DNA of 64,000 nt from Nitrospirota bacterium (GTDB lineage Bacteria > Nitrospirota > Thermodesulfovibrionia > Thermodesulfovibrionales > JdFR-86), in assembly GCA_963721805.1 (NCBI GenBank), contig CAVRJY010000001.1:800001-864000 (forward strand). The letters run 5' to 3'. Positions 15,186-57,221 of the stretch are shown piece after piece. The notes beneath the pieces are model-generated. The model searched no databases. It was given only the letters and a program-made list of their open reading frames with translations, and was not told where the DNA came from. Position 1 is the stretch's first letter, and each line of letters begins with the position of its first letter. Made by a program: the position numbers and the translations under genes.

Positions 15186-15442
15186 AAGGGGCCGACTGGC
15201 CCCTCTCCCTATTCGCAGGGTCACAGACCCCTCTCACAATTCGCGCCACAGCGCTCATCTCTAATCAAAGCTGTTGACCTTCGGGGCGCGGGGGGCTTCC
15301 GTTATCCTCGCCCCCCGAAAGCGCGCCCAAATCGGCTTCAGACAAGGCAGGGCGAGAAGACCGTCCGATGGTGTACTGTGACGTACATAGAGGGCGAGTC
15401 TTTGATGCCCAACGCAGTATCAAGCGATTTGGGCGCGCTTTC
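15186..15442 (+). repeat. Modular structured repeat, copy 1 (full: D-C-B-core; core 15317-15442)
   Basis: Perfect 18-bp inverted repeat GAAAGCGCGCCCAAATCG/CGATTTGGGCGCGCTTTC; GTAC-N6-GTAC apex; homologous to reverse complement of 26041-26288. Confidence 0.85.
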
Positions 15443-25220: not shown

Positions 25221-26042
25221 ATGGGGCTTTTCACTGTCGAGCGCGAGCTCTGCATGCGCGACGGGGTATGCGCCGCCGAGTGTCCGAGGAAGATCATAGG
25301 CACTGATGCGGACGGATTCCCAATACCGGCCGAGGGCGCTGAGGCGCTCTGCGTGGACTGCGGCCACTGTGTGGCGGTATGCCCCACCGGTGCGATCTCG
25401 CTGGCCCGGATGCCGAGGGAACTCTGCGCCATCATCGAGGACGGCCTCAAGTTGAGTCCTGAGCAGGCCTCGCAATACCTCAAGTCCCGCCGGTCTGTCA
25501 GATCTTACAAGAAAGAGCCGCTCCCGCGCGAGGTGATTCTTAAGATCATGGACATCGTGCGCTATGCGCCCACGGGCATGAATACGCAGGACGTGCAGTG
25601 GACCGTGATCGGCCCCGAGGGCTCGCGGCGCGTCGCGGAGTCCGTGATCGGCTGGATGCGTGCGCTCGTCGCGCTCGGCTCTCCGATGGCCGGGGCGTAC
25701 AACGCCAAGTCCATCGTCGAGGGCTGGGAGGCCGGGACGGACTTCATAATGAGGGGTGCGCCCCAGCTCGTCGTGGCCCACGCGCACAAAGACAACGCCC
25801 TGGCCCAGATCGACTGCACCATAGCGCTGACGTACCTCATGCTGGCCGCTATCCCCTATGGAGCCGGGACCTGCTGGGCCGGGTTCGTGCAGCTTGCGGC
25901 CGCGATGTCCCAAGACGTGCTCAAGTCCCTGGGGCTGCCCGAGGGACATAGGTGCAACGGGGCGATGATGCTCGGGTTTCCGTCCCACGAATTCCAGCGC
26001 ATCCCGTCACGCAAGGAGCCGGTTATTAACTGGGTGGTGTGA
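25221..26042 (+). CDS. Nitroreductase family protein with N-terminal 2x[4Fe-4S] domain
   Basis: CMRDGVCAAECP and CVDCGHCVAVCP; SRRSVRSY, APTG.N.Q, GTCWAG; AGGAGG RBS. Confidence 0.88.
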   Translation: MGLFTVERELCMRDGVCAAECPRKIIGTDADGFPIPAEGAEALCVDCGHCVAVCPTGAISLARMPRELCAIIEDGLKLSPEQASQYLKSRRSVRSYKKEPLPREVILKIMDIVRYAPTGMNTQDVQWTVIGPEGSRRVAESVIGWMRALVALGSPMAGAYNAKSIVEGWEAGTDFIMRGAPQLVVAHAHKDNALAQIDCTIALTYLMLAAIPYGAGTCWAGFVQLAAAMSQDVLKSLGLPEGHRCNGAMMLGFPSHEFQRIPSRKEPVINWVV

Positions 26043-26288
26043 AAGTGCGTTAAAGTCGCGTGATACGTTGTCACGGCTTCGGAAATCCGTCCTCCAGAGT
26101 ACGTCTCAGTACACTTGCGGACGTTTTCCTCGCCGTTCCTAGTCTGACGCGCTTTATCGCACTTTATGGGGTTGGTCGCGGCTCCGCCGCTGGACCCCAT
26201 GCCCCAAGGTCAACGGCTTTAATTAGAGTGAGCGCGGAGCGCGAATAGGTGAGCGTAGCGAATAGGAACAGGGGCCAATCGGCCCCTT
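26041..26288 (-). repeat. Modular structured repeat, copy 2 (full; core 26041-26165)
   Basis: AAAGTGCG/CGCACTTT closing stem, TGATACGTTG, GTAC-GTCTCA-GTAC, CCTAGTCTGA, AAGGTCAACGGC, terminal AGGGGCCAATCGGCCCCTT hairpin. Confidence 0.88.
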
Positions 26289-46336: not shown

Positions 46337-46540
46337 GAAAGCGCGCTAAAGTCGCGTGATACGTTGTCGCGGTTTCAAAGACGCGCCCTCGGAGTACGTC
46401 TCAGTACACCGTCGGGCGGTCTCCTCACCGCTCCTAGTCTGACGCGATTTATCGCGCTTTGCGGGGTTAGACGCGGCCCAGCCGCTGGACCCCGCACCCC
46501 AAGGTCAACGGCATTTATTTGAGTAAGCGCTCTGTGCGAA
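46337..46540 (-). repeat. Modular structured repeat, copy 4 (core 46337-46460, B, C; D absent)
   Basis: AAAGCGCG/CGCGCTTT, TGATACGTTG, GTACGTCTCAGTAC, CCTAGTCTGA, CCCCAAGGTCAACGGC. Confidence 0.88.
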
Positions 46541-54185: not shown

Positions 54186-54779
54186 ATGAATGAGTTTCTG
54201 CACGCGCTGCCCAACACGTTCATCCCGATCTTCGTAGCCATGGACCCGTTTATCATAGTGCCGGTCTTCGTCTCGCTGACCGAGGGGATTAGCGCGAAGT
54301 CCCGTGACCACGTGGTGAACACCTCGGCCGTCACCGCCCTTACGGTGAGCCTGATCTTCACGATGGGCGGAAGCGCGCTTTTCAGGGTGATGGGCATCAC
54401 GGTATTCGACTTCAAGGTCGCGGGGGGGCTAGTGCTGCTCGTGATCGCGATACTCGACCTCGTGAGCACGGGGGCGAAGGCCGCGACCCGAAACTCTGAG
54501 CACGCCGGGGTGGTGCCGATAGGGGTGCCGCTGATCGTCGGGCCCGCGGTGCTCACGACGATCATAGTGCTGATGGACAACCAGGGGCTTGTCCTGACCG
54601 TGACCTCGCTCGTGCTCAATATCCTTATCGTATGGATCGCGATGAAGAGCGCGAAGGCTATCGTGAGGTTCATGGGCATAAACAGCATGAAGGCTATTTC
54701 AAAAATCATGGCCATTATGCTGGCGTCGCTCGCGGTGATGATGATTCGATTGGGCATCGCTGGCATGACCGGGCACTAG
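54186..54779 (+). CDS. MarC family membrane protein
   Basis: FVAMDP, F.VAGG, VVP..VPLIVGP, K.M..LA..AV. Confidence 0.88.
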   Translation: MNEFLHALPNTFIPIFVAMDPFIIVPVFVSLTEGISAKSRDHVVNTSAVTALTVSLIFTMGGSALFRVMGITVFDFKVAGGLVLLVIAILDLVSTGAKAATRNSEHAGVVPIGVPLIVGPAVLTTIIVLMDNQGLVLTVTSLVLNILIVWIAMKSAKAIVRFMGINSMKAISKIMAIMLASLAVMMIRLGIAGMTGH

Positions 54780-54809: not shown

Positions 54810-54985
54810 GAAAGCCGCGCTAAATTGGCTGATACGTTGTCGCGGCTTCGGAATCCGTCCTCGATGTACGCCCAAGTACACCGTCGGACGTCTTCCTCGC
54901 CGCTCCTAGTCTGAGTCTAATTTATCGCGCTTTGATGTGGCCGATGCCTGATCGTGCGAGCGGTCAACGGCATTGATAGGAGCGG
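54810..54985 (-). repeat. Modular structured repeat, copy 5 (core 54810-54933, variant B', C)
   Basis: TGATACGTTG, TGTAC-GCCCAA-GTACA, CCTAGTCTGA, CGCGCTTT, GCGGTCAACGGCATT. Confidence 0.85.
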
Positions 54986-55021: not shown

Positions 55022-55786
55022 TTATTGATTAAATTCGGTTTGTTCCAATGCTAAGCGCTTTTCAATTTCAATAAGTGCTTCCGACAAAGATAAATTATAA
55101 AATCCATCAGTTTCTTTGAGCGCTGTTAACATTAAGTCGCATGCCACTAGTAAATATAGTGACCTGTCTTCCTGATAAGGGAAAAAAGTAAATACGACAG
55201 GTTTGTTTGTTCCGCTGAGAATTAGATGTTCAATAGTCTTAGGTTTAACATGCACCACTTCAGAAAGGATACGATAAACGTGTTGATACCAATCATTCAT
55301 CTCAACCTTTTTAGCCAGCCATTCTGTCGAAATCCCTTGTTCTTTAGTTTCTTTAGCCACTGATAGTAGCATTGGCTTTAACTCAAATTCTTCATCTGGA
55401 AATAAATCAGGATGATCCTTCATAACATTCCCCATCTTTTTTTGACATGCCTCATGAGACTTCAAATATTTGTCAGCAAATGTTTCATCGTTTAGATTTG
55501 CTTTCAATAAAATTATGATTTCGAATAAATGCCTTAATAGAATTTGTATCTCAGCATTAAGTTGATACTCACCCAACTTGTAGAGACCTTTAAAAGTATT
55601 CATTGCTTTAATAAGAAAACCTAACGAATAAATATTGCGTGGATTAAGGTTGTCAGAATTGATTGCGGATCCGACTGCGGTAATGGCTTTCTCGCATATT
55701 TCGAAGAGTTTCTTGTATAAGTCTATGAGTTCGGGACTAATATCCCCATAGCCATATTTACTGTCAATCGAGACATCATTATCCAT
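55022..55786 (-). CDS. AT-rich DUF5677-like (HEPN-superfamily-like) protein
   Basis: All-helical 254 aa; ILLRHLFE and Y...YRILSEVVH motifs; composition unlike flanks. Confidence 0.6.
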   Translation of the reverse strand: MDNDVSIDSKYGYGDISPELIDLYKKLFEICEKAITAVGSAINSDNLNPRNIYSLGFLIKAMNTFKGLYKLGEYQLNAEIQILLRHLFEIIILLKANLNDETFADKYLKSHEACQKKMGNVMKDHPDLFPDEEFELKPMLLSVAKETKEQGISTEWLAKKVEMNDWYQHVYRILSEVVHVKPKTIEHLILSGTNKPVVFTFFPYQEDRSLYLLVACDLMLTALKETDGFYNLSLSEALIEIEKRLALEQTEFNQ

Positions 55787-55902
55787 GATCTATTATAGGT
55801 TATTGCGTGCAACAATGTTCCGCTAATAGCCGCCTCAGGCAAGCCCGGCGAAGCGTTCCGAAGTATTTATCGGGTAATGGATTGCCCGCAATCGGATGTT
55901 CC

Positions 55903-55943
55903 GGGGTCACGGACCCTATTCTTTAAGAAGGGGGCCAGTCGGC
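55903..55943 (-). repeat. Detached D-end fragment of the modular repeat
   Basis: GGGGTC-ACG-GACCCT...GGGGCCAGTCGGC parallels GGGGTC-TGT-GACCCT...GGGGCCAGTCGGC in the reverse complement of copy 1. Confidence 0.55.
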
Positions 55944-55967
55944 ACCGCGGTCGTGGTATAATTGCCC

Positions 55968-56264
55968 ATGGCCAGGTCACTTAAAGAGATAAAAAGCGCC
56001 ATAGTGCGGCATAGGGCCGAACTCAGGAGCGTATACAAGATCAAGGACATCGCGCTCTTCGGCTCATACGCGCGCGGCGAGCAGAAAAAAAACAGCGACA
56101 TGGACCTGCTCGCGGACTTCACCGGTCCGATAGGTCTCATAGAATTGGTGGGGGCCGAGCAGTACCTGAGCAAAATCCTCAAGGCGAAGGTCGACCTTAT
56201 CCCGAGGCGCGACGTGCGGCCGGAACTCAGGGCAGGAATACTTAAAGACTCCGTTTCGCTATGA
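55968..56264 (+). CDS. mntA: MntA-type minimal nucleotidyltransferase antitoxin
   Basis: GSYARGEQKKNSDMD = GS-X10-DxD; KVDL; overlaps downstream HEPN gene. Confidence 0.85.
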   Translation: MARSLKEIKSAIVRHRAELRSVYKIKDIALFGSYARGEQKKNSDMDLLADFTGPIGLIELVGAEQYLSKILKAKVDLIPRRDVRPELRAGILKDSVSL

Positions 56265-56608
56265 ACCGCGACCACGGCCTGTTTATCAAAGATATCCTCG
56301 ATAACATGGAGCGTGCCGAAGCTTTCATCAGCGGCATGACCTACAGGGAATTCTCAAAAGATATAAAGACCGCATACGCAGTAGTGAGATGCCTTGAGAT
56401 AATCGGCGAGGCCGTAAAGAACATTCCCCAGCCGGTCAGAAAACGATACCCCGAAATCCCGTGGAAAGAGATGGCCGGGATGCGGGACAAGGTGATCCAT
56501 TTTTATTTCGGAGTGAAGTTCAAGACCGTTTGGACTACCGCCAAAAAGGACATCCCCAAGCTTAAGCCGCTCATATTGAAGATCAAAGAAGACCTGTCCG
56601 AAGTCTAA
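56261..56608 (+). CDS. hepT: HepT/DUF86 HEPN ribonuclease toxin
   Basis: LEIIGEA, IPW..MAGMRDKVIHFY = RX4HXY. Confidence 0.85.
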   Translation: MNRDHGLFIKDILDNMERAEAFISGMTYREFSKDIKTAYAVVRCLEIIGEAVKNIPQPVRKRYPEIPWKEMAGMRDKVIHFYFGVKFKTVWTTAKKDIPKLKPLILKIKEDLSEV

Positions 56609-56813
56609 GACTAACTAAAGTTAATCGTAAGTTAATAGAAAACGCACGGGGATCAAATTATTTATCAACTCCGGTTTATATATAAACATTAGTTCCATGG
56701 ACTTTTCGGATTCGATGTGATTCAATACGGGATGATGTACATATGCTTATTTTTGAGAGTGTGTAAATCGCTGAGCGGCGGCTCGGAAAATGTCTTTGAG
56801 CACCCGGCTGGCG

Positions 56814-56999
56814 CATCCGAACAAACGGCCGGATTTGGGGGTAAAACATCCGAACATCCGAACACGGATAAAACAAAAAAGATAGGCAAATCACCATCTT
56901 ATGATCTGTTTTGCGCCCAACATCCGAACAAAAAAGGACAAAAACGCGCGCGCACGCGCGCGGAATGCATAACTATACCTAAGCGAGCGCATCCGAACA
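56814..56999 (+). repeat. Five direct copies of CATCCGAACA plus an alternating CG tract
   Basis: Copies start at 56814, 56847, 56855, 56921, 56990; CGCGCGCG-CA-CGCGCGCG at 56945-56962. Confidence 0.75.
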
Positions 57000-57000
57000 C

Positions 57001-57161
57001 GCCTTTGACCGCTCGCACGATTAGGCATGTGAAACTTAAAGCGCGAGAAATCAGCGTCAGACTAGGAACGGCGAGGAAAACGTCCGAGGGTGTACTGAGA
57101 TGTACATTGAGGACGGATTTCCGAGTCGTGACAACGTATCACGCGATTTGGCGCGACTTTC
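57001..57161 (+). repeat. Modular structured repeat, copy 6 (C, variant B', core 57038-57161), inverted relative to copy 5
   Basis: TCAGACTAGG...GTAC-TGAGAT-GTAC...CAACGTATCA; 57001-57028 is the reverse complement of 54944-54971 with 2 mismatches. Confidence 0.87.
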
Positions 57162-57221
57162 TGCCCTCTTACTATTATTTACGGAATTTGATAGTATATG
57201 GGTGTAGATAGGGGGTAGACC

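Follow-up and report, generated by a model that had tools for sequence, protein, structure and literature searches.

Hairpin repeats of the REP, ERIC, and Correia kinds were described decades ago, and it is still debated whether they are selected as DNA, selected as RNA, or are mere parasites. The attC sites of integrons are imperfect palindromes of 57-141 bp, with one folded strand as the substrate. They lie beside cassette genes, in one-directional arrays beside an integrase, and have core sites RYYYAAC/GTTRRRY; unpaired or non-canonical positions decide which strand is used. In Correia elements, the terminal inverted repeats are 26 bp long and there is a TA duplication; Correia/NEMIS elements are cleaved by RNase III. 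The Correia/NEMIS elements of Neisseria, which are listed in the table of PMC3184786, are hairpins of ~100-150 nt that are transcribed with their neighbors, and they are plausible ribonuclease substrates. The portion of the same source that deals with the ERIC (or IRU) elements of the Enterobacteriaceae describes imperfect palindromes of ~127 bp with many intergenic copies in either orientation, which are co-transcribed and are conserved over a wide bacterial group; elements of this type have terminal inverted repeats, target duplications, and a flanking TA.

Here we describe a family of hairpin repeats from Nitrospirota, with its fold, covariation, strand asymmetry, and genomic contexts. The family is clean material for the question of DNA, RNA, or parasite: it has hundreds of copies per genome, heavy covariation, and strand-specific non-canonical pairs. 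The stretch of DNA that we analyzed (the window) has 64,000 nt (G000:C1:800001-864000) and comes from a 2.78-Mb assembly with 9 contigs and ~60% G+C. The features that we refer to are listed below. For each copy of the hairpin core, the strand in the list is the favored strand; scores are from cmsearch, and fold energies (kcal/mol) are given for the favored strand and then for the reverse strand.

57037..57160, plus strand: hairpin core copy, a 124-nt imperfect palindrome with 45 model pairs (127.7 bits on the plus strand vs. 25.5 on the minus strand; nhmmer bounds 57031-57164)
Within the 57037 copy, plus strand: outer stem, AAAGCGCG/CGCG(A)CTTT
Within the 57037 copy, plus strand: asymmetric loop, TCAGACTAGG / GACAACGTATCA
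57000..57036, plus strand: lineage-specific head of the 57037 copy, with box CGCCTTTGACC (consensus AATGCCGTTGACC) and then the "class C" spacer GCTCGCACGATTAGGCATGTGAAACT
56810..56999, plus strand: upstream non-coding module, common to a subset of copies, with repeated CATCCGAACA motifs and the palindrome CGCGCGCGCACGCGCGCG
56261-56608, plus strand: HepT-like RNase gene (Pfam, 6e-29)
55962-56264, plus strand: MntA-like nucleotidyltransferase gene (Pfam, 6e-16)
55022-55786, minus strand: DUF5677 gene (Pfam, 2e-18)
54811..54934, minus strand: core copy that faces the 57037 copy head-to-head (113.4 bits; fold -52.6 vs. -48.7)
46337..46461, minus strand: core copy (132.3 bits on the minus strand vs. 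35.9 on the plus strand; fold -62.5 vs. -58.6)
26041..26166, minus strand: core copy (121.4 bits on the minus strand vs. 40.6 on the plus strand; fold -55.9 vs. -54.0)
15317..15442, plus strand: core copy (115.5 bits on the plus strand vs. 27.5 on the minus strand; fold -70.6 vs. -61.9)

A preliminary description of the window had counted six copies. Five of these were found by both cmsearch (E ≤ 1) and nhmmer (E ≤ 10), and "copy 3" was found by neither. Across the five copies, the favored strand scores 113-132 bits against the covariance model; the reverse strand scores 25-41 bits in four of them and has no match in the fifth. The favored strand also folds better in all five, by 1.9 to 12.3 kcal/mol. 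For the 57037 copy, the RNA fold is -50.8 kcal/mol on the plus strand (z = -5.5) vs. -38.5 on the minus strand (z = -4.0), and the DNA fold is -24.3 on the favored strand vs. -21.1. This copy also holds two GA/GA internal loops, G.T wobbles, and an apical GTAC...GTAC stem. The 15317-15442 copy is a member of a large, young subfamily and has a GC-hairpin head. When we read the sequences, all of the stems that had been quoted were present in the copies named. These are the compensatory stem pair AAAGTGCG/CGCACTTT (26041 copy) vs. AAAGCGCG/CGCGCTTT (46337 copy); the alternatives CGTCC/GGACG and CGCCC/GGGCG; ACGGC/GTCGT and GGTGTAC/GTACATT in the 57037 copy; GGAGAC/GTCTTT in the 46337 copy; and CGTCC/GGGCG in the 15317 copy.

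We take the element to be the core of a structured repeat, abundant and interspersed, with a range that spans the phylum Nitrospirota. An iterated nhmmer search of the 2.78-Mb genome gave 235 matches (106 on the plus strand and 129 on the minus strand), 193 of them full length. At 90% identity there are 90 clusters: the largest is young and has 64 members, and the others are small, mostly singletons.

This repeat shares with ERIC elements its near-equal length, a palindrome over the whole element, and its many intergenic copies, but ERIC is from another phylum, and the two are compared by description, not by sequence. Like REP, BIME, and REPIN elements, it has hundreds of intergenic hairpin copies that form mosaics with small modules and show compensating changes, and REP elements also adjoin stop codons. 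However, the REP/REPIN unit is a palindrome or inverted doublet of ~20-40 nt, while the Nitrospirota unit is one continuous hairpin of 124 nt with 45 pairs. We rejected membership in the REP/REPIN-RAYT system, as no RAYT gene is flanked by the repeats and the only Y1 genes are IS200-like. The six matches to PF01797 are identical copies of a 602-bp element that encodes a 144-aa Y1 transposase:

G000:C1:42147-42748 and five further places (L001-L006): IS200-like insertion sequence, with end hairpins CCCCGTGGC...GCCACGGGG

We also rejected an origin of the repeat as a palindrome derived from IS200/IS605, because the end hairpins differ and because the orientation of the repeat is not tied to replication: there is no replichore bias on the main skew arm of C1 (49 plus, 61 minus), on C2 (16 and 20), or on C4 (13 and 18). 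The IS200-like copies lie in AT-rich accessory DNA, and five of the six are within ~1.2 kb of a copy of the repeat.

The logic of a strand-specific folded substrate is shared with attC sites. By arrangement and core sites, the hairpin is not an integron attC, as its copies are dispersed on both strands and have the ends GAAAGCGCG/CGCGCTTTC. In size and as a plausible ribonuclease substrate, it resembles the Correia/NEMIS elements, but we saw neither their terminal inverted repeats nor their duplications, and they are from another taxon. The longest words common to the 70-nt outer flanks of 159 copies were the same as in a shuffled control, apart from one 16-nt case (the test is blind to duplications of 2-4 bp). 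Long target duplications are thus not supported as a habit of this family, and we rejected a MITE of the ERIC or Correia type as judged by target-site duplication.

To follow the family beyond its source genome, we used a covariance model built from the 67-copy alignment described below. Of 150 other Nitrospirota genomes, 39 have a full-length match to it, or about a quarter of those sampled. By family code, these include all 11 genomes of f22, 14 of 18 for f23, all three for f3, three of seven for f18, and none of the 27 genomes in each of f19 and f24; f10 is negative as well. The covariance model was needed here: blastn with the core found nothing in 30 relatives. Rfam 15 at gathering thresholds identified only two tRNAs in the window, and E-value scans of Rfam with the window copy and three foreign loci gave nothing beyond tRNA, tmRNA, and microRNA or snoRNA noise below threshold. 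The hairpin is a candidate for a new Rfam family. Our search of the literature found no account of it. In the portion of the RepRanger paper considered here (PMC12306157), three Nitrospirota appear only as tabulated repeat counts, and the corresponding portion of PMC12439589 is about protein-only RNase P, not leader hairpins.

The f22 genomes revealed a genomic context that did not figure in the preliminary description. Among 42 sampled f22 copies, 19 precede a co-directional tRNA or tmRNA gene by 2-13 nt (for one tmRNA, the gene was read in the flanking sequence). In two whole f22 genomes, 10 of 22 and 5 of 22 model matches are upstream of tRNA or tmRNA genes, with gaps of 2-16 nt, and the hairpin precedes 14 of the 84 tRNA genes and one tmRNA. 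(The leader loci are L077-L082, L089, L106, L111, L113, L114, L116, L117, and L121-L123.) Before tRNA and tmRNA genes, the sense orientation is exclusive. At three of these loci there are sigma-70-like promoters (TTGACA-17-TAnnAT) upstream of the hairpin, so the favored strand is part of the precursor RNA there; that it exists as RNA is certain in the f22 precursors. To our knowledge, neither a position in tRNA or tmRNA leaders nor a conserved tandem G.U/G.A motif is a feature of ERIC elements.

The stems covary between copies, as the preliminary description had claimed from a handful of them, and this exceeds both shuffled and slid controls in three alignments. The own-genome alignment has 67 of the 193 full-length copies (65 fetched loci and two window copies), with the 45-pair structure drawn by hand. 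In this alignment, 90.7% of cells are paired vs. 84.1% after shuffling, and 22 of the 45 pairs have changes on both sides (shuffled mean 14.4; none of 500 shuffles reached 22). Double changes occur in 222 cells, vs. 72 in the shuffled control and at most 45 when the 3' partners are slid. The foreign copies give a larger contrast: 92.6% of cells are paired vs. 63.8% shuffled in set 1 (34 copies from 29 genomes; 37 of 45 pairs double-changed), and 89.9% vs. 63.0% in set 2 (50 copies from 40 loci; 40 of 45 pairs double-changed). The foreign alignments were fitted to the covariance model, which also chose the orientation, and both of these favor the structure. Despite this, the slid controls and the visible sequences leave little doubt about the foreign covariation: sliding the 3' partners by 1-3 columns lowers pairing to 28-43% in all three alignments. 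RNAalifold reported almost no structure for all 193 copies, with either hmmalign or L-INS-i as the aligner, since the arms are put out of register by indels between subfamilies; we replaced it with self-alignment of each copy and the covariance model.

We also compared, across genomes, hairpins that occupy one and the same tRNA or tmRNA site (12 pairwise comparisons over 5 site sets, which are partly non-independent). There were 87 double Watson-Crick changes, 27 single steps between Watson-Crick and G.U pairs, no steps between Watson-Crick and A.C, and 14 other single-step mismatches. Compensatory change at the same site across species implies that selection acts in place, and not only at transposition.

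A set of non-canonical positions is preserved: two tandem G.A loops, a tandem G.U beside the apical CGUAC/GUACG stem, and the asymmetric AAGG / (G/C)AACG loop. Across the 193 copies, the loop motifs TCAGAC(A/T)AGG and GAC...GTATCA (columns 30-39 and 103-114) are near-invariant. The GA/GA internal loops, which had been pointed out in the window copies, are kept in the larger set as well: 46/97 is G.A in 111 of 146 copies, 47/96 is A.G in 131 of 150, and 59/83 is G.A in all 108. The clearest feature across the phylum is CCG(G)A-GGCGTAC-loop-GTACGTT-GA-GG, in which a tandem G.A runs directly into a tandem G.U. One pair of the tandem G.U is G.U in 30 of 34 copies in foreign set 1 and in 35 of 50 in set 2; for the other pair, this is so in 22 of 33 and 35 of 46. 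We considered a kink-turn, in which one strand has a bulge of three nucleotides just 5' of the tandem G.A pairs. The strand with CC-GA-GG has just zero or one extra base before GA (CCGAGGCGTAC or CCGGAGGCGTAC), so we rejected this motif.

The preliminary description also stated that most imperfect positions are G.T wobbles on one strand, which would be A.C mismatches on the other. G.T is indeed favored over A.C on one strand, but the commonest imperfections are purine-purine, not G.T. Among the 84 foreign copies, purine-purine oppositions outnumber pyrimidine-pyrimidine ones by 105 to 9 in f22 and by 137 to 17 in other families. The wobble bias depends on where one counts. A naive census of whole copies by self-alignment is opposite to it (610 A.C vs. 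386 G.T), due to the flanking CC/AA columns 8-9, which account for 95 A.C outside the hairpin, and to loop column 36/107. Within stem columns 10-68, there are 253 G.T vs. 83 A.C, and 42 of those A.C are at loop column 36/107, which leaves 41. Minimum-free-energy structures from RNAfold also run counter to the bias, with 731 G-U pairs on the reverse strand vs. 525 on the favored strand.

By counts of events and of pair positions, the bias holds. Parsimony on a tree of the 193 copies gives 78 changes from Watson-Crick to G.T vs. 26 to A.C, along with 127 double changes; the tree, built on ~130 columns, has poor resolution, and it over-counts events, but equally for G.T and A.C. In the foreign copies, G.T exceeds A.C at 30 of the 45 pair positions, A.C exceeds G.T at 6, and 9 are ties. 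With RNA parameters, the favored strand is the more stable in 139 of the 193 own copies and in 81 of the 84 foreign ones; with DNA parameters, the counts are 170 of 193 and 78 of 84.

These results bear on the explanation that the element is just a double-stranded palindrome, whether bound by a dimeric protein or serving as the inverted ends of a MITE, with no single-stranded fold under selection. The inverted repeat is near full length, the conserved boxes could be protein-binding half-sites, and shared descent alone can give covariation in related copies. But across the phylum, the arms differ at the same positions, and almost always by G.T or purine-purine on one strand. The stems covary freely, where a double-stranded site for a single protein should keep its sequence, and the same-site copies combine many double changes with a lack of A.C steps. 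We consider this explanation to be very improbable. The earlier proposal, that selection acts on the fold of one defined strand and not merely on a double-stranded inverted repeat, survived every larger test that we ran, and we are highly confident that the fold of one strand is selected in place. That evolution keeps the fold of one strand suggests that the element is more than a DNA palindrome and works as a folded RNA or as single-stranded DNA.

Which molecule is selected is less clear. We tentatively favor, at slightly below an even chance, that the favored strand acts as RNA, as a folded module that is recognized by a conserved protein or ribonuclease. Selection would then keep a hairpin of ~124 nt on one defined strand, with stems that may covary freely while the non-canonical set is held. 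In f22, the favored strand is demonstrably the sense strand of the precursors of tRNAs and tmRNA, with a gap of 2-16 nt to the mature 5' end, and there such a leader or spacer hairpin would mark or protect the sites of tRNA and tmRNA processing. The copies would have multiplied by a duplicative or mobile process, and those in the source genome gained an extra 5' "head" module. Some observations argue against RNA. In protein-coding contexts, the neighbor's mRNA mostly has the other strand. G.T and tandem G.A are stable in DNA too, and DNA parameters choose the same strand. The window copy has no promoter-like site on its own strand: a promoter scan found no sigma-70-like promoter before it on the plus strand, 57000-57036 included. 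And the tRNAs of the source genome do not have a leader copy: none of its 49 tRNA and tmRNA genes has a co-directional copy directly upstream.

A more specific version of the RNA reading seems to us possible but doubtful. It has a mobile, structured RNA, spread through the phylum and uncatalogued, whose tandem G.U/G.A platform docks a protein or ribonuclease. In Thermodesulfovibrionia-like bacteria, this RNA would govern how tRNA and tmRNA precursors are processed, and in other lineages it would have been re-used as antisense-oriented punctuation exactly between stop and start codons. Since the hairpin has a fixed place before tRNA and tmRNA genes in one lineage, an RNA role is directly testable.

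By our own crude gene calls for the source genome (2468 genes, 83% coding), 125 of 192 copies have the tail (3' end) of the core towards a convergent gene's stop codon, with a median distance of 12 nt, and 67 have it towards a start codon; the head side has no preference (96 vs. 96). In the window, the tail of the 54811 copy is towards the stop codon of a MarC-family gene (54186-54779, plus strand; Pfam). For the foreign copies, we classified the context of 75 of the 84, and dropped 9 with flanks under 300 nt. Between two genes on the same strand, 17 copies were antisense and 3 were sense (13:2 in other families and 4:1 in f22). Outside of f22, 10 of 19 cases had the tail no more than 2 nt away from a convergent stop codon. 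For the head, the distance to the next start codon was 0-16 nt in 9 of 22.

This tight fit between genes is what would be expected if the hairpin acts in any mRNA that runs through it, as REP, ERIC, and Correia elements do, by stabilizing or punctuating transcripts or by bringing together a stop codon and the next start codon. The portion of PMC3184786 that we cite for ERIC and similar repeats has them co-transcribed and affecting mRNA stability. The strand asymmetry would then be a by-product, for instance if purine-rich, Shine-Dalgarno-like loops are avoided on the mRNA strand, which would leave the purines on the opposite strand. The excess of antisense copies between same-strand genes is in line with this, as are the loops of the mRNA, which are pyrimidine-rich in antisense orientation because purine-purine far exceeds pyrimidine-pyrimidine on the favored strand. 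However, this does not explain the excess of G.T, as each G.T on the favored strand is a destabilizing A.C mismatch in the mRNA. Changes that are private to single copies have a G.T:A.C ratio of 34:9 for the 103 copies that are antisense to the neighboring gene, 15:6 for the 48 that are sense, and 10:4 for the remaining 41. The bias is equal whichever strand the neighbor transcribes, so read-through mRNA is not the selected molecule in most of the own-genome copies. The conservation of the tandem G.U across the phylum and the exclusive sense orientation before tRNA and tmRNA genes are not explained either. We consider a role in read-through mRNA to be unlikely.

The same independence from the transcription of neighbors could be explained if the asymmetry belongs to a mobile element and not to local gene expression. 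Single-stranded DNA would be selected, with the folded favored strand recognized by an enzyme of the element's own propagation, such as an HUH/Y1-type transposase (as for REP/REPIN and the ends of IS200/IS605) or an attC-like recombinase. The preference of DNA parameters for the favored strand is consistent with this, and so is the burst of 64 copies at ≥90% identity. We infer that the copies spread by a duplicative or mobile process. The ends of the copies also fit: the 3' end of the core (the tail) is sharp and is mostly followed by a short purine-rich run, beyond which the flanks are unrelated, while the 5' flanks are homologous between copies over 60 to >300 nt. At one f22 locus (L116), there are tandem arrays before tRNA-Glu with scores that rise towards the tRNA (28, 39, 48, and 65 bits), as might result from repeated insertion at one site.

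The arrangement of some copies points the same way. Own-genome copies often flank accessory genes, and we read six head-to-head pairs of copies from the list of genome matches. One of these is in the window, where the 54811 and 57037 copies enclose the DUF5677 gene and the MntA/HepT toxin-antitoxin pair (55022-56608). There is no transposase among these accessory genes. Outside of the pair are the MarC-family gene and a SprA-related gene, which are on the same strand as each other; the block looks as if it had been inserted between these two host genes.

On the other hand, the sole Y1 transposase of the source genome is that of the IS200-like element of 602 bp, and the hairpins at the ends of that insertion sequence bear no relation to the repeat. 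Y1_Tnp does not track the hairpin element in other genomes. It is present in 26 of 27 f19 genomes, where the element is absent from all 27, and G003, G037, G042, and G155 carry the element without a match to Y1_Tnp. The lack of a replichore bias and of target duplications beyond chance is not what such an enzyme would lead us to expect. Also, the same-site copies in different species keep the fold by compensatory change. We therefore think that selection as single-stranded DNA is somewhat unlikely, and we prefer the RNA reading.

The 5' flanks of the own-genome copies have a modular structure. The head has the box AATGCCGTTGACC, followed by one of several short spacer classes, which often contain GC hairpins; subsets of copies have further modules upstream. 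In most own-genome copies the box is 30-45 nt upstream of the core (for example, window 57000-57010), and it is absent in the f22 copies, which have no conserved head. We considered whether a head box with TTGACC might be a promoter, as this is similar to a -35 box, but rejected this, because no head class has a -10 box at 16-18 nt and the promoter scan of the window gives no prediction there. In the module upstream of the 57037 copy, the palindrome CGCGCGCGCACGCGCGCG and a run of T have a terminator-like score on the minus strand (56962-56945). Instead of this module, some copies have upstream arrays of small covarying hairpins, each followed by CTCACTATTCGC. The family would also be a confounder for gene calling and for the assembly of Nitrospirota genomes from metagenomes.

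Finally, two copies (G000:C4:138129-138377 and one in the C1:1546534 region) are broken at the apical GTAC loop by other sequence (…GATGGTGTA|TCCCC…), which suggests that the apex of the hairpin can itself be a point of insertion or recombination.
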